Below, in pieces: positions 1 through 49,339 of a stretch of DNA of 64,000 nt (positions are counted from its first letter, which is position 1; the number at the start of each line of letters is the position of its first letter). The stretch lies in assembly GCA_964579725.1 (NCBI GenBank), contig CAZOHG010000002.1:30890-94889 (forward strand). The letters are read 5' to 3'. Below the pieces are notes generated by a model. It made no database searches and had not been told where the DNA came from. It saw only the letters and a program-made list of their open reading frames with translations. The DNA comes from an uncultured Deferribacteres bacterium (GTDB lineage: Bacteria; Zhuqueibacterota; JdFR-76; BMS3Abin05). Both the position numbers and the translations under genes were made by a program.

Positions 1-2316
1 AGCGTGCCTCCCGAGGGCATGGCGTCAATGGCATTTAAACAAATATTCAAAATAACCTGCTGAAACTGAGATGCATCTCCCATGACGGCGGGCAGAGGCG
101 TGGTGAATTGTTTCCGAATGGCGATTTTTTTCTGCAATCGGTGTGAAATAATTTGGTAGGTTTCCTCTAACACCTCATTTAGGGAGACCGGTTTGTTTTC
201 GTACTTACCCTTTCGAGCAAATCCCAAAAGTTGACGAGTAAGCGTGGAAGCTCGCTGTGCAGTTTGAATAATACCGTCAACCATTTCCAATTCTTCGCCC
301 TTCAAATTATTTTCCGCCTGAAGCAGCGAGGCGTACCCGATGATTCCGCCGAGCAAATTATTGAAATCGTGCGCAATGCCTGCGGCCAAAATACCGACCG
401 ATTCCATTTTTTGCGCTTGCAACAATTTTTCTTCCAATTTCTTTTGTTCGCTAATATCCTGGTAGTTTTCAATGACCCGCGTCACCTTTCCGTTTTCATC
501 TTTTAAAGGAAAGGTGTTCAGCGAAATGTAGCCCTCGGGATTTTCCTCGCTGGGGAACGGCACCACTTCCGATTGCGGGAGCCCCGTTTCAAACGTGCGC
601 CGTGTGGGACAAAAGGGACAAACCGATTGCCGTTTTTGGTACACTTCGTAGCAGTGTTTTCCTTTTAGATCCGGACCGTAGAGTTTTTCTGCAGTGGCGT
701 TCGCCATTTCGATTCGGTAATCAGGCGTAATGACAGACAAACCGTTGTTGGTGGCATTGTAAATGGCGTCAAAGAGATGCGCCTGTTCGGCAAGGCGTTT
801 TTCCAGCTCCTTCTTTTCTGTAATGTCCAAGAGAATGCCTTGAATGGCAGGTTGATTTTCGTACGTCACGTAGCTTACGTAACCCAAAATATGCCGAATT
901 TTGCCTGTTTTGGTGCGAATGGAAAATTCGATGAGCGGCGGCGGACTTCCCCCTTGCATCCGAAGTTTGGCATTTTCCTGAAGTTTTTGAATTTCCTCAG
1001 GATGGATGAAAAAATCCCACACCTGCATATTTTTCATTTCTTCCGCGGAATATTCGGTAATTTTGGTCAGGTACTCATTAAAATACAAGAATTTCTGACC
1101 ATCGTACACAAAGAACCCCGTTACTTCCGATTCCACTAAATTCCGGTATTTTTCTTCGCTTTGGCGAAGCTGTAATTCCATGAGCTTTCGCTCGGTGATG
1201 TCATTCAAATTCACCAACACGGCGGACTTATTTTCAATCTCAATTTTGCCAAAACTGTACTCCAGCCAGCGCACCTCGCCGTTTTTTCGATAAATGCGTA
1301 CCTCAAAGTGCTGACCCTCGTTTTTGGCGCTTATGTTCGAATAGGCCTTTTCGACCATTGCCCGATCTTCCGGCAATATGAAATCTCTCCAACTTTTCCG
1401 GTAGATTTCTTTTCGACGATAGCCCAAAATGGCAGCCGCCGCCGGGTTGACGTAAAAAAAGGAACCTTCTCTCACAATGGCAATCCCCGACTGAAACTTT
1501 TCGGCAATATTTCGAAATTGGGCTTCACTGGCTTTGAGCTGACGCAACATGGCCAAACGTCCGGCAATGTTCCGGGCGCTGCCCTGAATTTCGACCACCT
1601 CTTTGTGGTTATTTTGCACGCCCTTTAGCGAAATTTCAACGGGGATTACCTCTCCGTTGGGTGCTTTTAAGCGCATTTCAAAGGGTTCTAACAACTCACC
1701 GCAAAGAACCTGATTGAATTTCTCGCGAATAGTCGGCCAATCTTCCGGAAAAACAAGTCTTTGAAAAGGAAAAGGCTCATCTCCTGCCGAAATATCCAGC
1801 GGAGGCTGAGAAAGATAAGTCAGACGAAAATCGCGGTCGATTCGGAAAACGCGGTCTGTCATATTTCCCAAAAGCAGGCGGTAGCGCGTCTCCGAGGCTT
1901 TTGCCTTCTGCAAAGCGGCATTGGTTTTTGTTAAATCATTGAGAAACATGGTGATTTGATCCAGTTTGCCGTGGGAAAATACCCCTCGCATTTTGAGCTG
2001 CACGTGCAGACTTTTCCCGTAAAGCGACGTGTAGTCGAATTCCAATTCCACGCTTTCGCCTTTTAAAATAGCCTGAGTTATTTTTTCAATTTTTTGAGGA
2101 GAAAAAGGGCCAAGTTCACGCACGTCTCTTCCAATGGCAGGCGGTTGTGCCTCTTTTGGAATGCCCATTAGCTCTCGGGCAGCGGGATTGTAATACAACA
2201 CACGGAAATTGGCATCGCAAATCACAATGGGCATCGGGGCATCCTGCAAAAAATGTTGACCAAAATTCAACAATTTGGCAGAATCGTGTGCAATGCGGTC
2301 TAATGGAAAATTCATT
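1..2316 (-). CDS. Multi-PAS sensor histidine kinase, C-terminal part lies beyond the window start
   Basis: Reverse-strand translation from the ATG at 2316 (MNFPLDRIAHDS...) gives several PAS-like repeats. It then reaches an H-box (HDFNNLLGGIIGYASLL) and an HATPase N-box (VILNICLNAIDAMPSGG) at the window edge. The ORF track omits it because it is edge-truncated. Confidence 0.8.
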
Positions 2317-2903
2317 GGTGATCCTCTATTTTTTTGATGGAAATCCAATAGTGGCGAAAATTTTCTCTGATGGATACAGGAGAGACGCAGATGTCAATTC
2401 GGTTGACCGGGCAAAAGCCTGATCGAACCCAATGGCGAAAGAAGGAGAAGAAACGGCAGACGGCCGAAAATGTTTTCTCTTTCCAAACCTGAAAATCATC
2501 ACCAACCCCAATATTTTTTTTATGTATATCGGCCAATATTGGGAAATACTTGAATTCACAGGCGTTTTTTAGCCCTCGCGGATGGAGGTTTTTGAGGAAT
2601 TTTTCGGACAGGAATGTTAATTCGGGGCCAGCCTTTGAGTTGGTCAAACTGCCCGGAATGGCCACTCCAAACAGAAGGCTAATTGTCCTCTGGCTACATT
2701 GACTTGGAGGCAAAATTCGCTCTTAAAAAATCGCAATCTGTGGGGAATTTTTTGAGAAGCGCCTCCCACCGCCAGTAGAATGTGAAAAATCATGTAAAAT
2801 GAGCCGTTGCTTATTTTCCCCCGCGTCCGAAAAACACAGGCTGAATGTGAGCCTATCCCTTCACTGGCGGACGAAAGGGACGGGTTGACGGCGAGCCTCG
2901 ACC

Positions 2904-3686
2904 TTAGTTAGGAATCTTCTTGGGAGACCGATGAAAATGAACCACAAATTCTCCCACAGCAACACCGATCGCCCCTCCCAAAAACACATCCGAAACCCAG
3001 TGCTGATTGTGGTACACCCGGGAGGCAGCAACCAGAGCCCCGGCCGAATACCAAAAAATCTTCCAAAACCGATTCCTCGCGGAGTTAGCCAACACTGTGG
3101 AAACCGCAAAGGCCACCGTGGTGTGCCCACTTGGGAGGGAATTGTAACGGTTGTCAAGCTGAAACGGCTTAAAATAAAACGGAGACGCCCCTCCGTAAGG
3201 CCGCCTTCGTCCGAATAAGATTTTCAGAACCACAGTCACTGTTCCTGCGTAGCCGCCAGCTTCGGCCGCGCAAAGACCCACCTTCCGAATTTTGTTCTTT
3301 TTAAGGAGATAACCCACCCCGTACACCCCCATAACTCCCGCCACTGTCAACCCGTTTCCGTAAAAACGGTCCGCGTTCAAAAGAAAATTACCGACGGCAT
3401 TTTGATGCCCTTGCGCAAATTCCCGGGTTGCAAAATCCAATTGCGACAGCAAAACAGTTGCTCCCATTGCTCCGGCTGCAACAATCCACTGGCGGCGTTG
3501 AAAGTGAAAGGGGGCCGCCGCTAATTTTTTCCCAACGCGTGTAAAATCCAAAAAATCATTTTTCAAAACGGACGGTTGACAGATTGAGAAGTCGACGCTG
3601 GTGGAAGATGTGACGGCAAACACATCGGTTGTTCCAACCCAAAAAAGAAAAATCACACCCCCCAATAGGCTGAGCAGTTTTCTCAA
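2904..3686 (-). CDS. PAP2-family (type 2 acid) phosphatase, secreted or membrane
   Basis: The PAP2 signature motifs are present in order: KILFGRRRP, PSGHT, SRVYHNQHWVSDV. There is an N-terminal signal peptide or membrane anchor. The start is TTG at 3686. Confidence 0.8.
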   Translation of the reverse strand: MRKLLSLLGGVIFLFWVGTTDVFAVTSSTSVDFSICQPSVLKNDFLDFTRVGKKLAAAPFHFQRRQWIVAAGAMGATVLLSQLDFATREFAQGHQNAVGNFLLNADRFYGNGLTVAGVMGVYGVGYLLKKNKIRKVGLCAAEAGGYAGTVTVVLKILFGRRRPYGGASPFYFKPFQLDNRYNSLPSGHTTVAFAVSTVLANSARNRFWKIFWYSAGALVAASRVYHNQHWVSDVFLGGAIGVAVGEFVVHFHRSPKKIPN

Positions 3687-4002
3687 AGAGTTGATTTTAG
3701 TCTCCTCTTACCTGATTTTTTGATCTTTGTCTTTTGTACCCCAGCATTTAGCCAACCCGGAGGCATAAAAGTCGGCTCTGAATGTACTCACCCCGAGTGA
3801 ACCGTCGAAAATCCAGAAAAACTTTCTTTGAAATATACTGAGGCGTCGTCGGAAAATCAAGTTCAACTTAAAAGACCCTGTTTTTACGGCGGTGCACAGG
3901 TGTTGTTGCGGCTGAAAAAATCCCTGAAAATCTACTCTCGAAAGGGGGAAAAGGCGCTGTGACCGTTTGTTTGCCGAACCGGGGAATTTGCCTCTTTCAC
4001 AA

Positions 4003-4046
4003 TTGAAAAAAACGGCGGACAACTTTTCGAGCTGCCCGCCGCGGTC
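4003..4046 (-). terminator. Putative rho-independent terminator downstream of the cytochrome gene
   Basis: On the minus strand, the stem CGGCGG...CCGCCG is followed by TTTTTTT. The matching top-strand sequence is the A7 run at about 4004-4010. Confidence 0.4.
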
Positions 4047-4106: not shown

Positions 4107-6041
4107 TTATTTCAGCAAAAGTAGTTTTTGGGTAGTCACTAACGACTGTGCGCCGTGTACTTTGTCCAGAGAAGCACGGAGCAAATAGGAACCGCTTGGA
4201 ACGGGAAGACCTGAGCGAGAAGTCCCCGTCCACGTGAGACGAAGTTCACCGGCACCGATTTGTCCTTGGTAGAGCGTTCGAATGCGTTTTCCCAATGTAT
4301 TGTAAATTTGGACGGTCAAATTTCCCTTTTGCGGTACCTGAATGCGCACATGAACCTGAGGATTAAACGGATTCGGGTACGCCTGAACCAAAAGCTGACT
4401 TTGCGGAATCCGACCACTCTTTTCACCAGCCGAGGTGGTTGTAATGGTTTTTTGCAAGGAATCCAATGTGAACGGGACATTGGGCGTTTTTTCGTAATAC
4501 GAACGAAAGGCCTGCACCTGCGGCGTGTTGTAGCGGAAAAGGTCCTTTACGAAACGCGGACTCAAGCTCTGGTAATTCAATTTCACGGTTACCGTGTAGG
4601 TTTTACCTCGGACTACTCCCCCGATTCGGTAAATGGTGGTATCGGTTCCTGAGCCGTTGCGATTGAAATTCGAGTCGAGCAGGGCTTTCCCTAAAATCTG
4701 GGTGGAATCGTACGCTGCTCCGCCTATCCTGAAGCCCTCGGGTGGAATGCGGTTGTCTTTTAAATAGCCTGCCGCCCGCAAAAGAGTGTAATTGACCTTG
4801 CCGTCCACATCTTTCATGACCGATTGGTAAATCTGCGTTTCCTTCGGACTACGAATAACGGCGTGGTGGGGCTCGTAGGGGATTTCCAAATTCGCAATAT
4901 CCCCGCTGTCCGCATTCCAAATACCGGACGCAAAAAGAGTTCGGCCTTGCCGGTCGTCCAATCGAAGTTCCAACCAAACGCGGCGGCTTGGGTACGCAGT
5001 TGGGAATTTATGACCGGTCTTATTTTTCACAGCCACTCGAATTTCTAGTGTGTCCGGGTTTGTCCAGTTGTAAGAGGCCGACAGGTCTGCCGTTTCCGTC
5101 CGCAGCATGCGCTCTGTTCGGGCAATCGTGCTGTCCAGTTGAGTCGTCGTGGCCGTTACACCGAGAGTGGGGCCATTCGCCCGAATTAGGCGGAGCATGT
5201 ACAAATTCCCCCCGACGAAATGGTGTTGGGCAAAAGGACTTCGCCCTCCCAGCGAACGCGGTCTATTGGCGATCACAACCGGCTCGTCCAGATCGGGCAT
5301 GTGGCACGATTGGCATTGCTTGTCATTTTTCGGGAAAATGCTATTCTTCCATTCCAAATAGGGGGTTTGTTCGGGTGCCTGTCCCACAACCTGGCCGGTG
5401 TTGTTCACATAAGGCGTAAAAAGCGTGTGACACGTCGCACACAATTCCGATTGGTGGGTTTGTTCTCCAAATCGAGGGGTGTAATTGGTTTGATTTTGCA
5501 TGGGCATTGTAAGCGGATTTTCAAACGGCCCGTAAATAATGTGATCGTTCTGAATTAAATAGTGCCCGCTGTAGCTTTCCGGCTTTCCCAAATTATCCGC
5601 TTTGATCTGGTGGCAGGCGGTACAGCTGACACCGTCCATCGCCAAGGGGTCTGCATTCATTTCAGCCATTGTGTAGCTGGAACTTCCCTTGAAAATCGCT
5701 TCCGTGCGGCCCAAGGGTGAGTGACACGTGGTACACTTGTCCTCAATCACACTCCTCAAGTGGGGGTTGGCTGTGACTTCCGCCGAAACTTTTGCCTGCC
5801 AGAAGGGGTCCTTCGCAGCGTTTGCCATCATGGTGGAGCGCCAAAGCGTCACCGGCGAAACATCTTCCCCCCGAATATTCAGCAACGCGCTCGTGTTCGG
5901 GGAACCGGGCTGGTGACACAGAGCGCAATTGCCCGAACCACTGAAAAGGTTGGAGGTTTGTGTGGGCAAATTTTGGGCATTTGCGCCGGGAATAAATCCA
6001 GCGGTAAAAAACACAAGAAATAAAAACAATGTTTTTCGCAT
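4107..6041 (-). CDS. Secreted pentaheme c-type cytochrome with a T9SS C-terminal sorting domain
   Basis: There are five CxxCH motifs: CALCH, CTTCH, CTACH, CATCH and CQSCH. The signal peptide is MRKTLFLFLVFFTAGFIPGANAQ. The C-terminal ~90 aa (AYPNPFNPQVHVRIQ...YLLRASL...) match the Por/T9SS secretion-tail pattern. I chose the start at 6041 (ATG with an AAAGGA Shine-Dalgarno) rather than the upstream 6242 extension. Confidence 0.8.
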   Translation of the reverse strand: MRKTLFLFLVFFTAGFIPGANAQNLPTQTSNLFSGSGNCALCHQPGSPNTSALLNIRGEDVSPVTLWRSTMMANAAKDPFWQAKVSAEVTANPHLRSVIEDKCTTCHSPLGRTEAIFKGSSSYTMAEMNADPLAMDGVSCTACHQIKADNLGKPESYSGHYLIQNDHIIYGPFENPLTMPMQNQTNYTPRFGEQTHQSELCATCHTLFTPYVNNTGQVVGQAPEQTPYLEWKNSIFPKNDKQCQSCHMPDLDEPVVIANRPRSLGGRSPFAQHHFVGGNLYMLRLIRANGPTLGVTATTTQLDSTIARTERMLRTETADLSASYNWTNPDTLEIRVAVKNKTGHKFPTAYPSRRVWLELRLDDRQGRTLFASGIWNADSGDIANLEIPYEPHHAVIRSPKETQIYQSVMKDVDGKVNYTLLRAAGYLKDNRIPPEGFRIGGAAYDSTQILGKALLDSNFNRNGSGTDTTIYRIGGVVRGKTYTVTVKLNYQSLSPRFVKDLFRYNTPQVQAFRSYYEKTPNVPFTLDSLQKTITTTSAGEKSGRIPQSQLLVQAYPNPFNPQVHVRIQVPQKGNLTVQIYNTLGKRIRTLYQGQIGAGELRLTWTGTSRSGLPVPSGSYLLRASLDKVHGAQSLVTTQKLLLLK

Positions 6042-6552: not shown

Positions 6553-8676
6553 TTATGAATGTTCTTTTTCCACTTTGAGAAATCGAGCGTTAACGGCCAC
6601 GATGACCGTACTTAATGACATTAACACGGCCCCCACGGCGGGACTCAAAATAACACCGTAGCTGAACAGAACACCCGCGGCCAGCGGAATGGCAAAGGCA
6701 TTGTAGCCCGTTGCCCACGCCAAATTTTGCACCATTTTTCGATACGTAGCCTTAGCCAGCCCAATGACCGCAACCACATCCAACGGATTACTGCGAACCA
6801 AAACAATATCGGCTGTTTCGACGGCTACGTCCGTTCCTGCCCCGATGGCAATGCCCACATCCGCCTGGGCCAGAGCCGGCGCGTCGTTAACGCCGTCCCC
6901 TGTCATGGCAACGGTTAATCCGCGCTTTTGGATTTCCTTTACTTTCGAGGCTTTTTCGTGTGGCTGCACCTCGGCGAAAAATTCATCGATCCCAATTTGC
7001 TCAGCCACCCATTTGGCTGCTTTTCGGTTATCTCCTGTTAACATCATGGTTTGAATTCCCATTTTTTTGAAGCGCCGAATCGCCTCTTTGGATTCGGGTC
7101 GAATCCTATCGGCCAGCGCAATAGCGCCGCGAACAAATCCATTTACCAGAACAAAAATCACCGTTTTCCCCTGAGCGCTCAGTTCTTCCACGCGGGAATC
7201 GGTCATGGGAATATGGTTCTCACGCAAATACCCTGGACTGACCACCATGATCTCTTCCCCGTCGACCATTCCTTTGGCCCCTTTGCCCGGAATGGCCTTG
7301 AAGGTTCGAACTTGAGGAAACTCGTTGACGGACTGCACAATACTCTGAGCGATCGGGTGTTCCGAATGCGCTTCCACGGCAGCTGCTTTGCTCAATAACG
7401 CTTTGGCATTGGTATTGGAATCAAAGACCAACACGTCAGTGATGCCGAAGTTGCCCAGAGTCAACGTACCGGTTTTATCAAAAATGATTGCCTGTAAATG
7501 GCGCGCCTGTTCAAAAGCGGCACGATCGCGAATCAGTAGCCCATTTTTGGCTGAAATTGCGGTGGAAACCGCCACCACCAAAGGCACAGCCAGTCCGAGG
7601 GCATGGGGACAGGTAATCACCATGACCGTCACAGTGCGTTCAAGAGCGAAGGCCAAACTCTGGTGCAAAACCGCCAGCCAGACAAAAAGGGTAAGTCCTC
7701 CCGCACCGATAGCGATGATTGTCAGCCAAAAAGCCGCTCGATTGGCCAAATCCTGGGTTTTGGATTTGCTTTGTTGGGCTTGCCGCACCAATTCAATCAC
7801 CTGAGCCAGAAAAGAGTCTTTGCCCGTTTTCTGAATCAAAATAGTAAGGGAACCCTCCCCGTTAATGGCGCCCCCGATTACCTCATTACCTACTTTTTTG
7901 CTAATGGGTTTGGATTCACCGCTTAACATCGATTCGTTGACCGAGCTTATTCCCTCAACTACCACGCCGTCCCCGGGAATTTTCTCCCCGGGTTTGACCA
8001 AAACGCGGTCGCCCGGTTTTAATGCATTTAATGGAACATCCTGAACGGTTCCATCTGCCAAAATAACGTGGGCATTGGCCGGCATCAGTTCGGCCAGCGC
8101 TTCTAAAGCTCGCGAGGCTCCCATTACCGATTTCATCTCGATCCAATGACCGACCAACATGATGTCAATTAATGTGGCCAATTCCCAAAAAAAGATTTTG
8201 CCCCCAAGACCAAACACCACTGCTGTGCTGTAAACATAGGCAACTGTAATCGCCAGAGCAATGAGTGTCATCATACCGGGTGTTTTTTTCTTGAGTTCGT
8301 CACCCATTCCTTTTAAAAACGGCCAGCCGCCGTAAAAAAAGACCGCTGTAGCCAACAGAAAAGACAGCATTAAATCGCCGCCGAATCGCAGGCTTTCGCC
8401 CAGACCCAACACTTTTTGAATCATGGGTGAAAGCAACAGAATAGGAACGGTGAGAATGAGGGAAAACCAGAAGCGCTTGCGGAAATCCCGGACCATCATG
8501 GCGTGGTGGTCATGGTGACTGTGTTCCGCATGCCCCTCATGGCGATGATAGTCATGATCAGCTTCGTGGCGCGTGTGGTCATGCCCCTCGTGGTGACGAC
8601 CGTGCCCTGTGTGCGGGGGGGCCTCCCCCGATTTCATTTCAGGGGTCATTTCGTGATGTTGATGTTTGTTTTCCAT
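6553..8676 (-). CDS. copB: Copper-translocating P1B-type ATPase (CopB-like, CPH motif, His-rich N-terminus)
   Basis: DKTGTLT, GDGVNDAPAL and TGES-type motifs are present. The transmembrane metal-binding motif is CPH (CPHALGLAVP), not CPC. The N-terminus is His-rich (HHEGHDHTRHEADHDYHRHEGHAEHSHHDHH), which is typical of the P1B-3 subgroup. Confidence 0.9.
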   Translation of the reverse strand: MENKHQHHEMTPEMKSGEAPPHTGHGRHHEGHDHTRHEADHDYHRHEGHAEHSHHDHHAMMVRDFRKRFWFSLILTVPILLLSPMIQKVLGLGESLRFGGDLMLSFLLATAVFFYGGWPFLKGMGDELKKKTPGMMTLIALAITVAYVYSTAVVFGLGGKIFFWELATLIDIMLVGHWIEMKSVMGASRALEALAELMPANAHVILADGTVQDVPLNALKPGDRVLVKPGEKIPGDGVVVEGISSVNESMLSGESKPISKKVGNEVIGGAINGEGSLTILIQKTGKDSFLAQVIELVRQAQQSKSKTQDLANRAAFWLTIIAIGAGGLTLFVWLAVLHQSLAFALERTVTVMVITCPHALGLAVPLVVAVSTAISAKNGLLIRDRAAFEQARHLQAIIFDKTGTLTLGNFGITDVLVFDSNTNAKALLSKAAAVEAHSEHPIAQSIVQSVNEFPQVRTFKAIPGKGAKGMVDGEEIMVVSPGYLRENHIPMTDSRVEELSAQGKTVIFVLVNGFVRGAIALADRIRPESKEAIRRFKKMGIQTMMLTGDNRKAAKWVAEQIGIDEFFAEVQPHEKASKVKEIQKRGLTVAMTGDGVNDAPALAQADVGIAIGAGTDVAVETADIVLVRSNPLDVVAVIGLAKATYRKMVQNLAWATGYNAFAIPLAAGVLFSYGVILSPAVGAVLMSLSTVIVAVNARFLKVEKEHS

Positions 8677-8739
8677 GATTCAGTCCTTTTTAGGTGCGCT
8701 GTATTCTGTCAGGGAGAGACTCCCCGTTCAGTATCCTTC

Positions 8740-8973
8740 TCAGAGAAGTTCCTTTTTCATCTTCTCAAATTCTTCCTCTGAAATTTCTCCTCGAGCAAAA
8801 CGCTTTTTCAGAATTTCAAGCGGCGTTTCGCCGTGAAAGGTTGGGTTTTCAGGGTGATTTTTCTTCTGATTGTTGGTAAACGAAATAACGGCCCAAATAA
8901 TAATTCCCAAAAAGGCCAGCCAAAAGATGGAACCAAACCACATTCCACCGCCCCATCCAAATCCGTGCATCAT
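8740..8973 (-). CDS. SHOCT-domain small membrane protein
   Basis: The C-terminal motif ETPLEILKKRFARGEISEEEFEKMKKEL matches SHOCT. There is a glycine-rich TM segment. ATG at 8973 has an AAGGAG Shine-Dalgarno. The ORF-track extension to 9030 lacks an RBS. Confidence 0.6.
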   Translation of the reverse strand: MMHGFGWGGGMWFGSIFWLAFLGIIIWAVISFTNNQKKNHPENPTFHGETPLEILKKRFARGEISEEEFEKMKKELL

Positions 8974-9044
8974 TTTATTTCTCCTTCCGTTAGGTGAATA
9001 ATTGGGTAGGGAAATGCTCCCTACCCTCATCTGTTTCTTTCCGA

Positions 9045-9650
9045 CTACCGCATCATACCGCGGCCCACCATGGAACCGGGCTTGGCGGGGAGAGATTTTA
9101 ACTTCTGTAACTGGTCAGGGGTTAGAACCTGGCGTCCGCGCTCAATGGTATTTAGAAACGCGGCGCGAAGTTTGCCCTCCAACACCGTTATTCGGTTCAA
9201 TGTGGACTGTGCCTTTTTGAAATTTGGGCTTGTGTTCTTCAAAATTTGTTTCAGGTCGAGAAGTGCCACCTTACGATCCGCCTGATTTTGAATCGCCAAT
9301 TTCTGAAATTCCAATTTCAAGGTCTGTAATTTCTCAATTTGAGCCTGTGTCAGGTCAAGCTGTTGCGAGAATTTCAGAGCAAATCCCGGGCAACCGTAGC
9401 TGTGCAACTGACCAAACAGGGGGTCTCCCATGTTCATCTCGCTGCCCTTGTGCATCATCATTCCCATCATCCGGCCCCGCATCTGGCCGGGTTTTGCCTG
9501 CGGGCTTTGCTTGCCCATCATTTGGCCCCGCATTTGCATGGCGTTTTTCATGGGCATTGGGTTCGGAGCAGTGGTTTGCGTCCAACCCGCTCCCGCCAAT
9601 GTTACCGCACCAATGGCCACTGCAATGGCCGTAATCCATTTCTTTTTCAT
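9045..9650 (-). CDS. Spy/CpxP-family (LTXXQ) periplasmic protein with a Met-rich N-terminal region
   Basis: Signal peptide is present. Two LTXXQ motifs occur: LDLTQAQIEKLQ and LTPDQLQKL. The N-terminal tract is Met-rich (MPMKNAMQMRGQMMGKQ...MRGRMMGMMMHKGSEMNMG). An AAGGAG Shine-Dalgarno precedes the start. Confidence 0.65.
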   Translation of the reverse strand: MKKKWITAIAVAIGAVTLAGAGWTQTTAPNPMPMKNAMQMRGQMMGKQSPQAKPGQMRGRMMGMMMHKGSEMNMGDPLFGQLHSYGCPGFALKFSQQLDLTQAQIEKLQTLKLEFQKLAIQNQADRKVALLDLKQILKNTSPNFKKAQSTLNRITVLEGKLRAAFLNTIERGRQVLTPDQLQKLKSLPAKPGSMVGRGMMR

Positions 9651-9810
9651 ACCGATTTCTCCTTATTTTTTGAGATGCATTTTTCCGAATACAAGACATT
9701 CTAATTCAATGAACGTGCCAAAAACAAAACAGGAGCACAACACCAATAAATACAATAGGATACGTTTTAGAGGAAGTTCGAAAGGAATTTAGAAATTTGA
9801 AGAATACTCT

Positions 9811-9830
9811 AAAAGTGTAGAATATTCTAC
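9811..9830. repeat. Perfect 18-bp palindrome GTGTAGAATATTCTACAC between the cusA 3' end and the spy-like promoter region
   Basis: Read directly from the sequence. It is followed by TTTTAG on the top strand. It could act as an operator or as a hairpin/terminator. Confidence 0.3.
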
Positions 9831-9868
9831 ACTCAAGGGGGGCGATTTAACCATCGCCCCACCCTACA

Positions 9869-12800
9869 TCACCGGGATTTTTTTTGCAGACTGTGTCCTT
9901 TCCAAAGAAAATAGATCGCCGGAATCACAATGAGCGTCAATAATGTCGAAGTGATCATCCCCCCGACCATAGGAGCGGCAATTCGTTTCATGACCTGCGA
10001 TCCCGCGCCTGTGCTCCACAAAATAGGTAGAAGCCCAAAAATAATGGCAGAAACCGTCATCATTTTGGGGCGTACGCGCTTGACGGCCCCGTCGATAATG
10101 GCGGCATCCAAATCCGCTTTGTTTTTCATTGCACCGTTCATCTTCCGTTGGTTGTAAGCCTGGTCAAGATAGATAAGCATGACCACCCCTGTTTCCGCCG
10201 CCACACCGGCCAGGGCAATGAAGCCAATACTCACGGCTACACTCATGTTGTAGCCCAGGAAGTACATAAACCAAATACCGCCGACGATTGCGAACGGCAG
10301 AGAAAGCATAATAATCAAACTTTCGGCCACATTTTTAAAATTGAAATAAAGAAGAAGAAAAATCAGCACCAGCACAATAGGAATCATAATGCGCAAGCGA
10401 GCCGCCGCACGTTGCATGTATTCGAATTGGCCGCTCCAAACAATGCTGTACCCTGCCGGGAAATTGATTTTTTCCTCCACAACTTTTTGGGCTTGTTTGA
10501 CGTACGTGCCCACGTCGACACCGCGAATATCCACATAGAGCCAGGCCGTTCGCTTGGAGTTTTCGCTTTTAATCATCGGTGGCCCCTTGCGAATTCGAAT
10601 CCTGGTTATTTCTTCAATGGGGATTTTGGCGCCCGAAGGCGTTGTCACAAGAATCCTTCGAAGGGCAGGCAAATTGTCGCGGAGTTCGCGCGCGTACCGA
10701 ACATTCACCGGGTACCGTGCCAAACCTTCCACAGTGGAGGTCACATTCATGCCCCCAACGGCCGATTGAATCACATCTTGGACATCACCCACCGTCAGGC
10801 CGTAGCGGGCAATGGCGTCACGGTCAATTTCAAAATCCAGATAATTTCCACCAATGGTTTTGTCGGGGAAAACACTCACCGTTCCCGGAACATTTCTCAG
10901 CGCCTGCGCAATACGATTCCCCAGCGAAGAGAGAACGGACAAATCGCTCCCCATGATCTTAATGCCGACAGGCGTTTTGATTCCCGTAGACAACATATCG
11001 ATGCGGGTTTTAATAGGCATTGTCCAGGCGTTGGTCAACCCCGGAAAATGAATGGAGCGATCCAACTCACGCACCAATTTTTTCATGGTCATGCCCGGAC
11101 GCCACGCCTTCTTCGGTTTCAAGGTAATGGTTGTTTCAATCATGGAAAGCGGAGCGGGGTCTGTGGCGGTTTCGGCACGCCCGATTTTTCCAAAAACATG
11201 GTCAACCTCCGGAAAACTTTTAATGATCTTATCGGTCTGCTGAAGCAATTCTCGCGCCTTTGTAATGCTGATGCCCGGATCGGTGGTGGGCATGTAGAGC
11301 AAATCACCCTCATTCAGCGGCGGCATGAATTCAGACCCGATTTTCCGGAACGGGAAAATGGTTGCCAACAAAATAAGCAGAGCCAGGAAAATCACCCACC
11401 CCTTAAAACGCAGTACTACATTAATAATCGGGTGGTAGATTTTGATTAAAATAACATTGAGGGGATTTTTGTTTTCCGGCCTGATTTTTCCGCGAATCAA
11501 ATAGCCCATGAGAACGGGAACCAGTGTAATCGAAAGCAAGGCCGCTGCTGCCATTGAATAGGTTTTGGTGTAAGCCAACGGCTTAAAAAGTCGCCCCTCC
11601 TGAGCCTGCAAGGCGAACACCGGCAAAAACGAAACCACAATGATCAGCAGGGAGAAAAAAAGCGCAGGGCCGACCTCCTTGGACGCCTCGCTGACCACCT
11701 GCCAGTGCCCCTTCTTCCCGTCCGCATGTTCCAGATGCTTGTGTGCATTTTCGATCATGACAATGGCGGCGTCAATCATGGCACCAATGGCGATGGCAAT
11801 TCCTCCCAAAGACATAATATTAGCATTAAGTCCCTGAAAATACATGACTAAAAATGCCAAAAAAATACCCATAGGCAGCGTAATAATCGCCACCAGGGCG
11901 CTCTGGAAATGGAGAAGAAAAAGGATGCTAATAAGGGCGACGATTATGCTTTCTTCAATGAGTTTGCCTTTCAGGGTCTCAATGGCACGGTGAATCAAGG
12001 ACGAACGGTCGTACGCAGAGCGAATGGTAACCCCTTTGGGGAGCCCCTTTTGCAAATCTTTGAGTTTGGCTTTGACCAGGTTAATGGTTTTAAGTGCATT
12101 TTCACCGTACCGCATGACGATGATTCCGCCTACCACTTCCCCCTCACCGTTCCAATCGGCGATGCCGCGGCGCAATTCGGGTCCAATGTGGACATCGGCC
12201 ACATCCTTTATTTGAATGGGAGTCCCATTTTTATCTACCCCCAATGCAATGGAACGAATGTCTTCCGCCGAATGGATGTACCCCAAACCACGCACCATAA
12301 ATTCCGTTTCACCCATTTCTAAAAGTCGGCCCCCGATGTCGCGATTACTCCTTTTGAGCGCCCTTTTCACTTGAGCCAAAGAAATCCCGTACGCCTGCAA
12401 CTTATTGGGGTCAACCTCCACCTGATATTGCTTGACAAATCCCCCTACGCTGGCTACTTCGGCCACGCCTGGAACGGAGGTTAGTTCGTACCGAAGATAC
12501 CAATCTTGAATGGAACGCAATTCGCTTAAATCGTGGTTTTTGCTTTGCAACACGTATTCGTAAATCCAGCCGACGCCGGTTCCGTCTGGGCCCAGTGTTG
12601 GGTGCGCCTCGGCGGGCAAACGACTGGAAACCGCGCTCAAATATTCTAACACGCGACTTCTGGCCCAGTACAAATCGGTGCCGTCCTCAAAAATAATGTA
12701 CACGAAAGAGGTTCCGAAAAAAGAGTACCCGCGCACGACCTTGGCGTACGGGACAGCCATCATCGCCGTGGTGAGTGGGTACGTGACCTGGTCTTCCACA

Positions 12801-12979
12801 ACTTGAGGTGCCTGACCCTTGTATTCCGTGTAAATAATCACTTGAACGTCGCTGAGGTCGGGAATAGCGTCTACCGGCGTACACAACAGAGCCACCAGGC
12901 CCGCCAGGCCAATGCCGATCGAAAAAAGCAGAATTAAAACCCGGTTCCGAATCGAATAATCGATGATTTTTTCTAACAT
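9869..12979 (-). CDS. cusA: CusA/CzcA-family heavy-metal efflux RND permease
   Basis: A 1036-aa protein with 12-TM RND topology. The family is unmistakable in the ORF-track translation (AcrB/CzcA-like motifs throughout). Confidence 0.9.
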   Translation of the reverse strand: MLEKIIDYSIRNRVLILLFSIGIGLAGLVALLCTPVDAIPDLSDVQVIIYTEYKGQAPQVVEDQVTYPLTTAMMAVPYAKVVRGYSFFGTSFVYIIFEDGTDLYWARSRVLEYLSAVSSRLPAEAHPTLGPDGTGVGWIYEYVLQSKNHDLSELRSIQDWYLRYELTSVPGVAEVASVGGFVKQYQVEVDPNKLQAYGISLAQVKRALKRSNRDIGGRLLEMGETEFMVRGLGYIHSAEDIRSIALGVDKNGTPIQIKDVADVHIGPELRRGIADWNGEGEVVGGIIVMRYGENALKTINLVKAKLKDLQKGLPKGVTIRSAYDRSSLIHRAIETLKGKLIEESIIVALISILFLLHFQSALVAIITLPMGIFLAFLVMYFQGLNANIMSLGGIAIAIGAMIDAAIVMIENAHKHLEHADGKKGHWQVVSEASKEVGPALFFSLLIIVVSFLPVFALQAQEGRLFKPLAYTKTYSMAAAALLSITLVPVLMGYLIRGKIRPENKNPLNVILIKIYHPIINVVLRFKGWVIFLALLILLATIFPFRKIGSEFMPPLNEGDLLYMPTTDPGISITKARELLQQTDKIIKSFPEVDHVFGKIGRAETATDPAPLSMIETTITLKPKKAWRPGMTMKKLVRELDRSIHFPGLTNAWTMPIKTRIDMLSTGIKTPVGIKIMGSDLSVLSSLGNRIAQALRNVPGTVSVFPDKTIGGNYLDFEIDRDAIARYGLTVGDVQDVIQSAVGGMNVTSTVEGLARYPVNVRYARELRDNLPALRRILVTTPSGAKIPIEEITRIRIRKGPPMIKSENSKRTAWLYVDIRGVDVGTYVKQAQKVVEEKINFPAGYSIVWSGQFEYMQRAAARLRIMIPIVLVLIFLLLYFNFKNVAESLIIMLSLPFAIVGGIWFMYFLGYNMSVAVSIGFIALAGVAAETGVVMLIYLDQAYNQRKMNGAMKNKADLDAAIIDGAVKRVRPKMMTVSAIIFGLLPILWSTGAGSQVMKRIAAPMVGGMITSTLLTLIVIPAIYFLWKGHSLQKKSR

Positions 12980-13014
12980 GCGTCTCCCACTAATTGAATG
13001 GTTTTGGCCCTCGC

Positions 13015-14448
13015 CTACTTCTTCTTTTCTGCCAGCATTTTTTGAATGGCTTCCTGCAACCGGCTCTCGGAATCCAAAAGGAATTGAGCCGAGGTGACAA
13101 CCTTTTCCCCCGGCAGCAAACCCGAAGCGACTTGCACCTCATCGGCGTTCTGAATACCCAATTGAACCTGGCGCGGTTGAAATTTTCCTTTTCCGAGAGC
13201 AATGAACACAAGATCCCGTACGCCGGTGCGAATAACGGCTTCGGAAGGCACGACCAAAGCTTTTTGTTGAGGGCGCGTTTTCAGAAAGACCGTGGCAAAC
13301 ATGTTGGGCTTCAAGATTAAATCTTGGTTGTCCAGCGTCAATCGCACTGCCACGGAACGCGTCTTGCGTTCCAAATAGGGGTAAATGTACGAAACAGTTC
13401 CGCTGAAATCCCGGTTGGGAAAGGCATCAAACCGAACAATGGCTTTTTGGCCCAGGTGCACCCAGGGAATATCGTTTTCGTAAATTGTGGCATTGAGCCA
13501 AACCGTTGAAAGGTCGGCAATCTTAAAAAGTGGCGCGCCCGCCCGCACAAAATCGCCCTGAAAAGCCTTTTTCTCGATGACAAACCCGTTCGTCGGAGCG
13601 AAGAGCGTCAGGGTTTTGGTCAAAACGCCCCTGTTTTCTAAGGAGCGAATTTGCGCTGGCGAGATGTCCCACAACTTGAGGCGGTCGCGCGTGGCTTTTA
13701 GAAGGTCACGGGCACCCCTGGTAACTTCGGGGAAAGAGCTTTTCCCCAGGAGCTTTCTGTTTTTCAGCGCAAGCAAATATTCCTGCTGGGTTGCCACCAA
13801 ATCCGGAGAGTATATTTCCAGCATGGGAGCGCCCTTTCTGACCCGTTTGCCGGTGTAATCCACAAAAAGGCGTTCAATCCAGCCGGAGATTTTTGTCGTG
13901 ACCGCCACCATTTTTTGTTCGTCGTAGGCCACGGTTCCCACGGTGCGAATACTCTTGCTGATGGTCTTTTCCCGAACGGCCACCGTTCGCACGCCCATAT
14001 TTTGCACGGTAATCGGGTCAATTTTTACCGTGCCGCCCTTTTGAACATCGCTTTCGTAGACCGGGACCAGGTCCATTCCCATTTTCGACTTGCCGGGATG
14101 ATCGTAAATTTCTGTGGGGTCCATGGGCGCCTGCCAGTACAAAATTTTCCCTTTTTTCTCGGCTGACGTTGTTTTTTCTGTCCCTTCTTCCGAACCGGAA
14201 GCACCCTGTTTGACCGGGACTAAATCCATGCCGCAGATGGGGCACTGGCCGGGTTCTTTGGAAATGACCTGCGGATGCATCGGGCAGGTGTACAGGGTGG
14301 CCTTTTGGGTGTCAGACGTCCGTGCCGGTGTTTCTTTTTGACTGGAGTCGTTTTCCTCCCCCGGCAAAAAGAAAAAAAGTCCCCACCCAATGGCTATTCC
14401 AATGAAGACAAGCGCCAACCCCTGAAAATAGCGTGTGAATGTACCCAT
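13015..14448 (-). CDS. cusB: RND efflux periplasmic adaptor (CusB-like) with a duplicated N-terminal Cys/Met metal-binding module
   Basis: The N-terminus carries YTCPMHPQVISKEPGQCPICGMDLVPV and a second degenerate copy, YWQAPMDP...KMGMDLVPV. Lipoyl/beta-barrel/MP-proximal domains typical of HlyD-family adaptors follow. Confidence 0.85.
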   Translation of the reverse strand: MGTFTRYFQGLALVFIGIAIGWGLFFFLPGEENDSSQKETPARTSDTQKATLYTCPMHPQVISKEPGQCPICGMDLVPVKQGASGSEEGTEKTTSAEKKGKILYWQAPMDPTEIYDHPGKSKMGMDLVPVYESDVQKGGTVKIDPITVQNMGVRTVAVREKTISKSIRTVGTVAYDEQKMVAVTTKISGWIERLFVDYTGKRVRKGAPMLEIYSPDLVATQQEYLLALKNRKLLGKSSFPEVTRGARDLLKATRDRLKLWDISPAQIRSLENRGVLTKTLTLFAPTNGFVIEKKAFQGDFVRAGAPLFKIADLSTVWLNATIYENDIPWVHLGQKAIVRFDAFPNRDFSGTVSYIYPYLERKTRSVAVRLTLDNQDLILKPNMFATVFLKTRPQQKALVVPSEAVIRTGVRDLVFIALGKGKFQPRQVQLGIQNADEVQVASGLLPGEKVVTSAQFLLDSESRLQEAIQKMLAEKKK

Positions 14449-14454
14449 TTGTTT

Positions 14455-15756
14455 TTACCTTTCCTTTGCTCTCAAAAATAAGGGTTTGCCAACAATAATT
14501 TCCAATTCGGTAAGGGCGATTTCATACTCAGCCTGTGCTCGGTAGTAGTCGCTTTCGTAGCGAAACAGTGTTTGTTGATTGTTCAGGAGCGTCAGAAAAT
14601 CGATCTTCCCCACCTGGTAACTGGTCAGAGCTGCGTCTAACGCCTGTTTGGCCTGAGGCAAAATGCCTTCCCTCAAAAGCTTAAGCTGCTTTCGATTTTT
14701 TTCCGCACGCACCCAGGCATCCCGCAACTGAAAGCGAAGGAGGTTCCGCATGTTTTCCAGCTCTGCTTTTGCCTTTTGCAAATTTAGATCCGCTTCCTCC
14801 GTTCTTTGGGCCTGTTTTTGCCCGAAAAAAACCGGCAGATTGAACGCAACCGTAGCGGAAACGTAGTCGATGCCGGGGGCTCCCGTTTTGAGACGGTCCC
14901 GCTGGGTGTACGCCACCCCCAGAGTGACATCCGGCCAAAAATCCTTTTTCGCCAGTCGAAACAACCGCTCGGCTTTTTGCACAACGAGGCGACTTTTTTT
15001 CAAAATCGGCCGCAACGCAAACGCCAGACTTTCCAGTTCCCCGAGCGTTTGGCTCAACGAATCCAACCGAATCGTTCGGATTTTCGGAATGGGGATGTCC
15101 ACAGGACGATTGACCAAGATATTTAATTTGGCCTGAAGCGATTGCCGCTGTTGACGCAAGGCAATTTGACGATTCCGCAAGTTGGAATATTCCACCTGCG
15201 CTTTGAGAACATCCTGCTGGACACCTTTTCCCACGGCGTAACGGGTCTCGGCAATCCGGTTGAATTGCTTCAACAGGGCCATATTTTTGGCCGTCACGCG
15301 CAGCATCCGGTCTACAGCAAAAAGAGCAAAATAGGTGCTCTTTACCCTTCCCACGAGCTGATTTTCAAGTTCGATCCGGGTTTGTTCCGCAATTTGAAAC
15401 CGCGCCCGGGCCACGGATTTTTTTAGGCCCAACTTCCCGGGAAAGGGGATTTTTTGCCTGAGTGAAAGCTGTTTACCCGACATGGGTTCCTTGTTGAATA
15501 CGAAGGCATTCACCGGCAAATTCATGAAACTTACCGACAAAACTGGGTCAGGAAGACTGCCTGCTTGCGGAATTTCTTTGGCCGCTGCTTGAACGGCCAG
15601 TGCTCGGGCACGCAAATCCGGATTGTTTCGGAGCGCCAGGCGGACAAATGTTTCCACAGAGGGGGCAGTTTTCGATTGTTGAGCAAAGGAAAGTCCATTT
15701 AAACCGAGCCAAACAAGGGCTCCCAAAAGAATTATTTTTCTTCCGTTCATTCTCAT
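14455..15756 (-). CDS. cusC: TolC-family outer membrane efflux protein (CusC-like)
   Basis: Shows the TolC/OEP two-repeat architecture. The signal peptide is MRMNGRKIILLGALVWLGLNGLSFAQQ. I placed the start at 15756 instead of the 15846 extension. Confidence 0.85.
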   Translation of the reverse strand: MRMNGRKIILLGALVWLGLNGLSFAQQSKTAPSVETFVRLALRNNPDLRARALAVQAAAKEIPQAGSLPDPVLSVSFMNLPVNAFVFNKEPMSGKQLSLRQKIPFPGKLGLKKSVARARFQIAEQTRIELENQLVGRVKSTYFALFAVDRMLRVTAKNMALLKQFNRIAETRYAVGKGVQQDVLKAQVEYSNLRNRQIALRQQRQSLQAKLNILVNRPVDIPIPKIRTIRLDSLSQTLGELESLAFALRPILKKSRLVVQKAERLFRLAKKDFWPDVTLGVAYTQRDRLKTGAPGIDYVSATVAFNLPVFFGQKQAQRTEEADLNLQKAKAELENMRNLLRFQLRDAWVRAEKNRKQLKLLREGILPQAKQALDAALTSYQVGKIDFLTLLNNQQTLFRYESDYYRAQAEYEIALTELEIIVGKPLFLRAKER

Positions 15757-15934
15757 TCCTACACTTGGTTGTGTCCCGCACCCCGCGGCGGCAGCCGATT
15801 TCACCTGTTTGAGGCAAACCGTCTGCCGCGGAGGAGTGTAAGCCAAAAATTTCCGTCTTTCTTACGAAAATTGTGGAGCGTGCCAGGGCCTGGGCTGTTT
15901 CACCACGCGTTTGAACGCCGCTCTCTTTGAAAGG

Positions 15935-16411: not shown

Positions 16412-16540
16412 TTCGAAAACCTCCTTTTTGTGAGTTTGTCAACCAATTGCGTCTCTTAGATTCAATTGTTGTGCCAAAAAAGAGAAACAGAGCTAACCGT
16501 TTTATTTTCCGGTCGTAAGCTCAGTCATATTTTTTTGGGG

Positions 16541-30747: not shown

Positions 30748-30759
30748 TTGGGAGGGGCT

Positions 30760-31449: not shown

Positions 31450-31525
31450 CTGACCAGGGACGGTTCGCAAAAAAGGTGCAGGAGCGGTGAGAGATCAGAA
31501 AGGTGAACCAAAAAACGGGCAGCGT

Positions 31526-46427: not shown

Positions 46428-46464
46428 TGAAGACTCCTGTTTTGTTTTGAAAATAAGGGTTGTT

Positions 46465-49323: not shown

Positions 49324-49339
49324 GGAATTCTCCGAAATT

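Follow-up and report, generated by a model that had tools for sequence, protein, structure and literature searches.

Closest described systems

Chen et al. reportedly described, in 2019, the low-potential pentaheme cytochrome c552 of Thermochromatium tepidum (PDB 5ZE8). That protein has a helical five-heme domain followed by an Ig-like domain, and its overall fold is similar to the one modelled for the 644 aa protein examined here, which is encoded in a 64 kb stretch of DNA (the window). The sequence similarity is marginal, with an E value of 0.033 for the single sequence and 3.5e-4 for a profile, and the core of the protein in the window is approximately 130 aa larger, has a longer stem and is followed by a linker and a T9SS C-terminal domain (CTD). 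A mushroom architecture with a five-heme cap and an Ig-like stem is also shared with MccSep/ExtKL (GSU2937-2936), the multiheme selenoprotein polysulfide reductase of Geobacter sulfurreducens, but MccSep is a periplasmic tetramer with Cys as a ligand of heme 2 and with a catalytic selenocysteine (10.1101/2025.11.18.688581). The protein in the window has no spare Cys, no selenocysteine and a T9SS tail. Among the relatives with this architecture that we found, MccSep alone has been characterised biochemically, and its periplasmic location counts against an export reading (10.1101/2025.11.18.688581). The likeness of the core to T. tepidum c552 and MccSep had gone unseen in the first-pass annotation of this DNA.

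The MtrC, OmcA and MtrF cytochromes of Shewanella are likewise multiheme proteins in which heme and beta-sandwich domains alternate, and they are exported to the surface by a dedicated secretion system, as is predicted here. The heme domain passes PF22113, which covers domains II/IV of MtrC/MtrF (35.5 bits, cut-off 30), and the protein fails TIGR03507 (34.8 bits, cut-off 209.3). However, MtrC and OmcA have ten hemes in four domains and a lipoprotein signal, whereas our protein has five hemes and, as its signal peptide contains no Cys, no lipobox. PtdA, which is described as homologous to T. tepidum c552 and as containing a beta-sandwich, and which has a proposed role in outer-membrane electron transfer, is comparable by description only; its gene is in an operon with those for a porin and for tetra- and decaheme proteins, whereas the gene here is monocistronic and its product T9SS-tagged.

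Canonical T9SS type A cargo (gingipains, PorU, PorZ, secreted glycosidases and peptidases) shares with our protein a Sec signal and a seven-strand CTD of approximately 90 aa, but here the passenger is a multiheme cytochrome that is predicted to be loaded with its cofactors. The functions given for cargo in the T9SS papers that we consulted are virulence, gliding motility and carbon-source degradation. T9SS also occur outside Bacteroidota, in several other phyla of the FCB group (PMC11285876), and Marinimicrobia have many Por-CTD proteins (PMC5596340). Calditrichota were absent from the T9SS-bearing phyla in the literature that we found. Our literature search returned no paper that joins T9SS with multiheme cytochromes, and pairing T9SS with cytochrome or with Calditrichota returned nothing.

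The reading that we favour, and consider reasonably probable, is that the protein is an electron-transfer pentaheme cytochrome of the 5ZE8 structural family that is exported by a T9SS to the surface or released, the CTD having been gained in FCB bacteria.

The heme domain and stem

The cytochrome precursor gene is complete and on the minus strand (4107..6041; stop codon 4107..4109, ATG 6039..6041), as are all of the protein features given below. An identical 644 aa gene is annotated on public contigs. An alternative ORF with a TTG start is longer, extending up to 6242; the start used here, MRKTLF, is common to homologues and to the gene call on an identical public contig. The first 22 aa, MRKTLFLFLVFFTAGFIPGANA (5976..6041), read as a Sec (SPI-type) signal peptide, in which MRK is followed by a hydrophobic core and by a predicted cleavage site between ANA and Q. 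The model has low pLDDT at aa 16–22, and Q23 is at least 90% conserved.

Residues 23–316 (5094..5975) make up a mainly alpha-helical five-heme domain. Five CxxCH motifs had been claimed for the N-terminal half, and all were found, at aa 39, 103, 140, 201 and 243 (5913..5927, 5721..5735, 5610..5624, 5427..5441 and 5301..5315, respectively). They use all 10 Cys of the whole protein, the chance expectation from its own composition is 0.0035 CxxCH, and none of them varies across 60 close and 132 distant homologues. Judged from its sequence, the protein is a c-type cytochrome that has five hemes and carries a Sec signal peptide. The candidate distal ligands are H273 (5223..5225) and M181 (5499..5501), both invariant, and M72 (5826..5828), which is at least 90% conserved. 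The nitrite reductase NrfA was considered and rejected: there is no CxxCK, PF02335 scored 19.2 bits against a cut-off of 24.1 and there was no fold match, NrfA structures being returned only at E >0.8.

Downstream of the heme domain, a beta-rich region of roughly 300 aa had been proposed. A beta-sandwich does exist, but in the AlphaFold model (pLDDT 89) aa 248–316 belong to the helical heme domain, and the Ig-like stem defined by the model's secondary structure is only approximately 215 aa (aa 317–533; 4443..5093). It contains the invariant motif G343-H344-K345-x-P347 (H344, 5010..5012), in which F346 and T348 are nearly invariant. The H-x-F/M-P-T motif of the 5ZE8-type stem is thereby present; it aligns with NLQPHAMPTGAP in 5ZE8, and the profile alignment sets GHKFPTAYPSRR against PHAMPTGAPFRN. 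Across 132 representatives, which share approximately 36–53% identity, the invariant stem residues are G343, H344, K345, R353, H392 (4866..4868), D429, R431, D456 and D467, and K428 and N430 are at least 90% conserved. The motifs around H392, K428-R431, D456 and D467 are additional to those in T. tepidum c552.

Conservation of the stem on this scale exceeds what a simple spacer domain would need, and it favours an alternative in which the protein does not relay electrons passively but is a redox enzyme, either secreted or displayed at the surface. In such an enzyme, one heme would be open or weakly ligated, the stem would provide active-site residues and the candidate soluble substrates are polysulfide or other sulfur species, selenite, tellurite, peroxide or a metal ion. 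We regard this as possible, though not likely. The same cap-plus-stem architecture is that of a polysulfide/selenite reductase in Geobacter (10.1101/2025.11.18.688581), and a weak match to ExtKL falls in the stem motif of 44/60 relatives. Outside the heme motifs, the 132 representatives share few potential ligands for five hemes, namely three invariant His, one invariant Met (M181) and M72 at 90%. Rhodanese-like genes also adjoin four Bacteroidota homologues (three Flavobacteriales and one Saprospiraceae).

However, the ExtKL profile NF040886 scored only 25.3 bits against a cut-off of 250, with aa 330–371 aligned to profile positions 295–337, and neither CxxCK nor any other recognised catalytic heme signature is present. 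MccSep chemistry in particular is excluded. The distal Cys of MccSep heme 2 (C239) has no counterpart, there being no Cys beyond the five CxxCH, and the catalytic selenocysteine or Cys of its stem loop (U325) is also missing, as the stem contains no Cys and the ORF is uninterrupted, with no in-frame UGA. As both catalytic residues are lacking, a polysulfide reductase of the MccSep type was rejected. Accessory genes specific to a substrate were not conserved among the related loci. The core forms a large family of 676 clusters at 50% identity, and in three cluster representatives a PQQ-type GSDH dehydrogenase is fused N-terminal to this core, which points to an acceptor or relay role. Together with the PF22113 match, these fusions suggest that the protein relays electrons. 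Apparent N-terminal extensions of 400–485 aa at loci L018, L041 and L048 were rejected as ORF-calling artefacts.

The C-terminal domain and its distribution

A flexible linker, TTTSAGEKSGRIPQSQL (aa 534–550; 4392..4442), with pLDDT <50 at aa 537–548, separates the stem from a predicted T9SS type A sorting domain of approximately 94 aa (aa 551–644; 4110..4391). In the AlphaFold model, this CTD is a seven-strand beta-sandwich (strands within aa 551–642) at the extreme C-terminus. Its sequence includes YPNPFNP, close to the start, and GSYLL, and it ends in K-LLLLK; we take YPNPFNP, GSY and K-LLLLK to resemble the conserved motifs of type A CTDs. The N-terminal Sec signal of type A cargo is also present.

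The first-pass annotation had called the CTD a canonical Por-secretion-tail-like domain and suggested a comparison with TIGR04183 and PF18962. The NCBIfam model TIGR04183 was passed (26.6 bits, cut-off 23), and it is matched by 59/60 family members, with a best E of 1e-12. The score for the Pfam model PF18962 (Por_Secre_tail) was just below threshold (24.8 bits, cut-off 27), so 'canonical' is generous for this single sequence, although PF18962 is present in many close relatives. When the family profile was used to query PDB sequences, the top match was the CTD of PorU (6za2, E 8.6e-5). The model also matches PorU and PorZ structures, in matches for which the aligned domain was not assigned. 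Queried by itself, the CTD retrieved just short proteins and fragments, and the presence of PF18962 in 49/52 of the nearest non-family relatives informs the Por_Secre_tail identity and not the diversity of cargo.

The best Pfam match was to a different model, FlgD_ig (PF13860; 38.1 bits, cut-off 27; aa 573–624). FlgD, the flagellar hook cap, was rejected because the match is limited to its Ig-like part; the FlgD N-terminal family is absent and there are no flagellar genes nearby. The FlgD_ig score, with PF18962 under its threshold, nonetheless favours a second alternative, in which the protein is a periplasmic electron carrier and the C-terminal beta-sandwich is a FlgD-like structural or interaction Ig domain rather than an export signal. 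FlgD structures match the domain, MccSep is periplasmic, and core-only homologues in other phyla presumably are too. In the 64 kb window, no T9SS component (SprA/Sov, PorV, PorU, PorZ or GldKLMN) was found, which also counts against the reading that we favour. We consider this alternative improbable. The placement of the domain last in the protein, after a disordered linker, its three sequence marks and the TIGR04183 matches here and in the relatives all speak against it, and so does its distribution.

The nearest relatives of the protein are from a Calditrichaceae MAG (68% identity) and Caldithrix abyssi (63–64%), and its sister in the core tree is from a Calditrichota MAG. These relatives support the earlier assignment to the FCB group and indicate a Calditrichota-like host. 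Tails of 87–112 aa were found on homologues from Calditrichota, Marinimicrobia, Rhodothermales and Bacteroidota. All of the tails tested against TIGR04183 (9/9; seven from Bacteroidota, one from Rhodothermales and that of L024) passed, with 25–52 bits; L024 is a MAG contig that is labelled Gammaproteobacteria but nests among Bacteroidota. Of the homologues from Desulfobacterota, Chloroflexota, Methylomirabilota and Campylobacterota, most stop 0–6 residues past the core, and most non-FCB homologues terminate at the start of the linker. Two Desulfobacterota sequences that the core tree places within the FCB clade are likewise without a CTD, in keeping with a lineage-specific tag. One Melioribacteraceae homologue also lacks it, which counts against that reading. 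Across 80 genomic homologues, the tail follows the host phylum, with a T9SS CTD in FCB members and no tail in most others.

The tail of Bacteroidota orthologues is clearly different, being a type A CTD in the Bacteroidota style; a structural domain, by contrast, should have stayed conserved along with the core. The comparative data are the strongest evidence that we have; the phylum-tracking of the tail supports its reading as a sorting tag, and the data as a whole support a CTD that would act as a lineage-specific export tag. No second CTD-bearing protein and no ccm or ccs genes were found in the 64 kb window. In related genomes, genes for other T9SS-tagged cargo adjoin homologues.

Transcription unit and gene neighbourhoods

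Approximately 65 nt past the stop codon of the cytochrome gene, an intrinsic-terminator-like hairpin (4002..4042, minus strand) has a 13 bp stem with eight G-C pairs, followed by seven T. It lies between the cytochrome gene and a PAP2 gene on the same strand (2904..3686; PF01569, E 3e-21), the two genes being 420 nt apart. The first-pass annotation had pointed to this neighbour, and its identity holds. The adjacency is without functional weight, however, because the terminator intervenes and PAP2 was not recovered beside any of the homologues examined, and a cytochrome-PAP2 operon was rejected given the strong terminator and the 420 nt gap. PAP2 is a separate transcription unit. On the other side, the cytochrome gene is preceded by a 510 bp gap; set off by this gap and the terminator, it is monocistronic and its own unit. 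No sigma54 promoter-like site and no known RNA element were found upstream.

Further upstream in the window, the same strand encodes a His-rich P-type ATPase, a SHOCT protein, a protein in which the LTXXQ motif occurs twice, and a set of RND/MFP/OEP efflux proteins. A third alternative, that the protein is an extracytoplasmic cytochrome which alters the redox state of toxic metals in a metal or envelope-stress response along with these genes, is the least probable of all, for although in Marinimicrobia the gene comes directly after one of the LTXXQ/Metal_resist type and a two-component pair with sigma54, and SHOCT or DUF3347 genes are near two other homologues, the association is not kept in other Calditrichota loci, the gap and terminator isolate the cytochrome gene, there is no sigma54 promoter-like site and the fold has no known precedent in metal detoxification.

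When the ORFs of 82 loci were clustered all-against-all, the only neighbours shared across groups were generic histidine kinase or sigma54 regulator genes, and synteny was lineage-local, in Marinimicrobia and in Desulfobulbales. Near the gene, the 64 kb window was found to encode neither an outer-membrane conduit nor a periplasmic multiheme partner nor any further cytochrome, and no conserved porin, periplasmic multiheme partner or other partner gene was found in the related loci. With no such genes or conserved neighbour, a surface cytochrome would have no evident electron supply, and extracellular electron transfer in the Shewanella or Geobacter sense, to which the initial annotation had pointed, was not established.

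Proposed role and implications

Under the reading that we favour, the protein is a T9SS-exported electron-transfer cytochrome. As a five-heme protein that carries the export tag of Bacteroidota-like bacteria, it probably performs redox chemistry outside the cell. The precursor, whose signal peptide is seen in the sequence, would cross the inner membrane via Sec and lose that peptide. From the general biology of c-type cytochromes, the five hemes would then be attached in the periplasm, where the protein would fold. As the CTD and its phyletic pattern suggest, a T9SS may recognise the CTD and move the folded holoprotein over the outer membrane, after which the CTD would be cut off and the cytochrome either anchored at the surface or released. 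Outside the cell it could act as an electron-transfer module, passing electrons to or from extracellular or surface redox partners, for which secreted dehydrogenases, shuttles, metal oxides and sulfur species are candidates. Many hosts of the family are aerobic heterotrophs (Flavobacteriales and Saprospiraceae), which fits poorly with classical dissimilatory metal reduction.

If this reading is correct, a heme-loaded five-heme cytochrome would be a new class of T9SS cargo, the T9SS would be able to carry a protein with covalently bound cofactors, and redox chemistry would take place at the cell surface in several widespread FCB phyla. To our knowledge, these phyla are not usually counted among the electroactive bacteria. 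Surface redox activity in them would matter for the cycling of iron, sulfur and organic matter. As this large, uncharacterised family is carried by a cultured organism, Caldithrix abyssi, the question of export is directly testable.

A broader proposal, which is speculative and which we think doubtful, is that T9SS export of assembled multiheme cytochromes gives FCB bacteria an extracellular electron hub that is independent of Mtr and serves secreted oxidoreductases. The fusions of the GSDH (PQQ) dehydrogenase to the cytochrome suggest a hub that partners such enzymes. If so, the carriers would include abundant marine Marinimicrobia as well as Flavobacteriales and Saprospiraceae, and the route would be a previously unrecognised one. 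The cytochrome would be a bacterial counterpart of the cytochrome domain in fungal cellobiose or pyranose dehydrogenases, and might couple the oxidation of sugars outside the cell to external acceptors or to the oxidative breakdown of polysaccharides.

Other surface or extracellular modules are found on the same core in other lineages, among them GlyGly-CTERM (at its cut-off) and Soli_cterm. Sorting modules that are swapped by lineage on one core would provide a clean natural experiment on the gain and loss of tags. Some cores carry thrombospondin-type-3-like repeats, with a partial match to the MtsC model that is far under its cut-off.

The cytochrome gene and its product

The cytochrome gene occupies 4107-6041 on the minus strand (ATG at 6039-6041, stop codon at 4107-4109) and encodes a 644 aa product. 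An alternative TTG start would lengthen the ORF to 6242; the start giving MRKTLF is favoured, as homologue alignments begin there and gene callers picked it on a public contig of identical sequence. The protein begins with a signal of ordinary Sec/SPI type, in which MRK is followed by a hydrophobic core and then by ANA with predicted cleavage before Q; the signal contains no cysteine, and the cytochrome therefore has no lipobox. The residue directly after the predicted cleavage site, Q23 (5973-5975), shows at least 90% conservation among the 60 aligned family sequences. PMC5837995 reports a 'Q-rule' for signal peptides in Bacteroidetes, not across the whole FCB group, which includes Calditrichota, Marinimicrobia, Rhodothermales and Bacteroidota.

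CxxCH motifs at residues 39, 103, 140, 201 and 243 contain all of the 10 cysteines in the protein, from whose own composition only 0.0035 such motifs would be expected by chance. None of the five varies among 60 close relatives or among 132 cluster representatives (approximately 36-53% identity), and the protein is a pentaheme cytochrome, as the first-pass annotation had claimed. An AlphaFold2 model built from the 60-sequence alignment (mean pLDDT 89, pTM 0.77) comprises a mostly helical heme domain (residues ~23-316), a beta-sandwich that includes some helices (~318-533), a disordered linker (pLDDT <50 at 537-548) and a compact seven-strand beta-sandwich at the C-terminus (551-642). The region that follows the hemes, initially described as beta-rich and roughly 300 aa long, is indeed beta-rich in the model and is about 215 aa.

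The C-terminal domain

The C-terminal domain (CTD) starts with YPNPFNP, includes GSYLL and ends with K-LLLLK, which we take to resemble conserved motifs of type A CTDs. Its earlier designation as a type IX secretion system (T9SS) sorting domain agreed with one of the two relevant models, TIGR04183 (NCBIfam, T9SS type A sorting domain; 26.6 bits, cut-off 23), and not with the other, PF18962 (Pfam; 24.8 bits, threshold 27). The Pfam FlgD_ig model gave 38.1 bits against a threshold of 27. Judged from the window sequence alone, the evidence for a sorting domain is thus mixed, and on balance positive.

At the family level, the identity of the domain is clear. TIGR04183 was matched by 59 of the 60 relatives (best E 1e-12) and the CTD part of the PorU model by 51/60. 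The best PDB sequence match of the family profile was the PorU CTD (6za2, residues 1056-1153, E 8.6e-5), narrowly above FlgD Ig domains, and 49 of the 52 matches returned when only the CTD was used to search databases are annotated PF18962. Relatives are already auto-named 'T9SS type A sorting domain-containing protein' in databases.

Distribution of the tail across phyla

Comparison of the C-terminal tail across phyla was the most informative part of the analysis. One genome per species was scanned, and the ORFs of the 80 loci obtained were re-called and aligned to a CTD profile and to a profile of the core, which consists of the five-heme helical cap and an Ig-like beta-sandwich stem. Tails of 87-112 aa follow the core in Calditrichota, Marinimicrobia, Rhodothermales and 23 Bacteroidota loci (Flavobacteriales, Saprospirales, Bacteroidales and Marinilabiliales). 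All nine tails that were scored alone passed TIGR04183 with 25-52 bits (seven from Bacteroidota, one from Rhodothermales and one from L024, a locus labelled Gammaproteobacteria). Most homologues from Desulfobacterota, Anaerolineae, Dehalococcoidia, Methylomirabilota and Campylobacterota stop 0-6 residues past the core, where the linker starts in the window protein.

In an approximate neighbour-joining tree built from the core, the sequences form a Bacteroidota clade, a Calditrichota/Marinimicrobia/Rhodothermales/Ignavibacteria clade that includes the window protein, and a non-FCB clade. Two Desulfobacterota loci, L022 and L025, nest in the second of these, yet have no CTD, and one Melioribacteraceae homologue without a CTD is the exception among FCB. 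L024 nests among Bacteroidota and carries a T9SS CTD, which probably reflects misbinning or gene transfer. L019, labelled 'Lentisphaeria', is syntenic with Marinimicrobia. The mismatches between label and gene content at L024, L019, L022 and L025 are binning errors or horizontal transfers.

Other lineages have alternative C-terminal modules. One is a GlyGly-CTERM signal whose score equals the cut-off, and another is a Soli_cterm domain (148 bits). Thrombospondin-type-3-like repeats matched only part of an MtsC model and fell far below its cut-off, and Fn3-like repeats, seen by eye only, precede a T9SS CTD (34.8 bits on TIGR04183). Some other lineages have an apparent N-terminal lipobox, also recognised only by eye. 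Such a pattern is to be expected if a conserved extracytoplasmic core carries exchangeable modules for sorting or anchoring, each suited to its host.

Relatives of the core and proposed function

An exhaustive HMMER search returned a core family of 676 cluster representatives (50% identity clusters, E <=1e-30). In the family-profile alignment, the stem motif VKNLsGHKFPTAYPsRR pairs with IRNLQPHAMPTGAPFRN of c552, the pentaheme cytochrome of Thermochromatium tepidum (PDB 5ZE8) and a structural relative of the core. The gene for PtdA, a beta-sandwich c552 homologue, adjoins a porin gene, and the two belong to a putative porin-cytochrome cluster (10.1101/2023.11.21.568154). Outside the heme motifs, H344 of the stem motif, H273, H392 and M181 are invariant across the 132 cluster representatives and M72 is at least 90% conserved; these three His and two Met would suffice as candidate distal ligands for five hemes. 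K345, R353, D429, R431, D456 and D467 are also invariant, as are E224, Q225, E230 and W231 in the heme domain, and K428 is at least 90% conserved.

The heme domain scored above threshold with the Pfam model for MtrC/MtrF pentaheme domains II/IV (35.5 bits, threshold 30), and the whole fell short of the OmcA/MtrC family model (34.8 bits, cut-off 209). Unlike MtrC and OmcA, the window protein has five hemes, not ten, and no lipoprotein signal. NrfA was ruled out, as there is no CxxCK motif, PF02335 is under threshold and a fold match is absent.

From the MtrC-like pentaheme similarity, the sorting tags in several phyla and the lack of a recognised catalytic heme signature, we consider it reasonably likely that this is an electron-transfer cytochrome exported by the T9SS and either attached to the surface or released. 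The protein would be loaded with heme, the T9SS would carry the holoprotein across, the CTD would be removed and the cytochrome would exchange electrons with extracellular partners. In three cluster representatives (P0196, P0240 and P0187), a PQQ-type glucose/sorbosone dehydrogenase domain is fused N-terminal to the pentaheme core, an arrangement that speaks for the core accepting or relaying electrons from an extracytoplasmic dehydrogenase; P0196 also includes an F5/8 type C (carbohydrate-binding) domain, and its tail is exactly at the GlyGly-CTERM cut-off. However, no conduit that could bring electrons to a surface cytochrome was found, and this is the main weakness of the export reading.

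An enzymatic role appears rather unlikely. The cap-plus-Ig-stem architecture is shared with MccSep (ExtKL) of Geobacter sulfurreducens, a periplasmic tetramer and polysulfide reductase in which Cys239 ligates heme 2 and selenocysteine 325, contributed by the Ig-like domain, makes the active site complete (10.1101/2025.11.18.688581). The NCBIfam ExtKL model reaches the stem motif of the window protein with only 25 bits (cut-off 250). As the window protein has no cysteine beyond the heme motifs and its gene no in-frame stop codon, an MccSep-type enzyme was ruled out. A periplasmic carrier with an inert C-terminal Ig domain, into which the FlgD_ig match would fit, is improbable. A CTD profile made from the Calditrichota tail barely detects Bacteroidota tails; a structural domain would be conserved along with the core, and with this strong divergence the tail is not.

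Marinimicrobia genomes encode many Por-CTD proteins (PMC5596340). A full-text literature search found no paper that combines the T9SS with multiheme cytochromes, extracellular electron transfer or Calditrichota. A keyword search of the Caldithrix abyssi genome paper found no mention of a 'secretion system', and the paper's passages on multihemes do not deal with this protein. The cytochrome joins two known elements, a pentaheme core of the c552 type and a T9SS tag, and is not categorically new. It points to a class of T9SS cargo that has not been described and suggests that widespread FCB lineages may carry out redox chemistry at their surface; the observation itself is well founded and can be tested, and the function is a proposal.

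Gene neighbourhood

A 510 nt gap lies upstream of the cytochrome gene, and downstream of it is a strong terminator made up of a hairpin and a T-run. Upstream on the same strand is a heavy-metal efflux array (6553-15846, minus strand) that encodes a P-type ATPase with a His-rich N-terminus (6553-8676), a SHOCT protein (8740-9030), a 201 aa secreted protein with two LTXXQ motifs and no family match (9045-9650), an RND pump (9869-12979), a membrane-fusion protein with HMBD domains (13015-14448) and an outer-membrane factor (OEP; 14455-15846). A role in metal stress, which this array might suggest, is very doubtful. No gene neighbourhood is conserved across phyla, and only histidine kinase and sigma54 regulator genes, both from generic families, recur near homologues in many of them.

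Neighbours at other Calditrichota loci are unrelated to those in the window. Marinimicrobia loci (L085, 2338-9929; L007, L009, L010, L011 and L019) are syntenic, with genes for a histidine kinase, a sigma54 response regulator, a Gly/Asp-rich secreted protein of ~136-169 aa, a second unknown secreted protein of ~384-403 aa that might be an outer-membrane barrel, an LTXXQ/Metal_resist protein and the cytochrome. The window opens within a gene for a large multi-PAS sensor histidine kinase (3-2348, minus strand), cut by the window start.

The same-strand PAP2 phosphatase neighbour noted in the first-pass annotation was verified downstream of the cytochrome gene (2904-3686, minus strand; PF01569, E 3e-21). 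The terminator separates the two genes, and PAP2 was not recovered at any homologue examined. The phosphatase weakly resembles models of undecaprenyl-diphosphatase and lipid A 1-phosphatase (LpxE); the title of PMC12704123 links LpxE activity in P. gingivalis to a functional T9SS.

The 64 kb window contains no T9SS component, no second CTD-bearing protein and no other cytochrome. A T9SS-tagged FG-GAP protein (PF18962) adjoins a cytochrome homologue in a related genome, and a dockerin-domain protein beside a homologue in a related genome has only a faint Por_Secre_tail match. A glycoside hydrolase cluster (39254-54492) encodes a GH3, two GH38 alpha-mannosidases, a PA14-like protein and a GH78 rhamnosidase, none with a detectable T9SS CTD.

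Three intergenic sigma54-type sites are leads only, as such matches are not above chance window-wide (31 found, 36 expected). Two -24/-12 sites with one mismatch lie just upstream of the LTXXQ-motif gene (9705-9720, minus strand) and of the ORF at 15935-16411 (16461-16476, minus strand), and a perfect TGGCAC-N5-TTGCA (29542-29557, plus strand) is upstream of an unknown ORF (29647-30747). ORFs of 366, 881, 399, 524, 808 and 172 aa (29647-34132 and 55677-62962) have no Pfam or NCBIfam match; those of 366 and 881 aa lie on either side of a FecR-like gene, ahead of a gene for a CHASE2 adenylate/guanylate cyclase.
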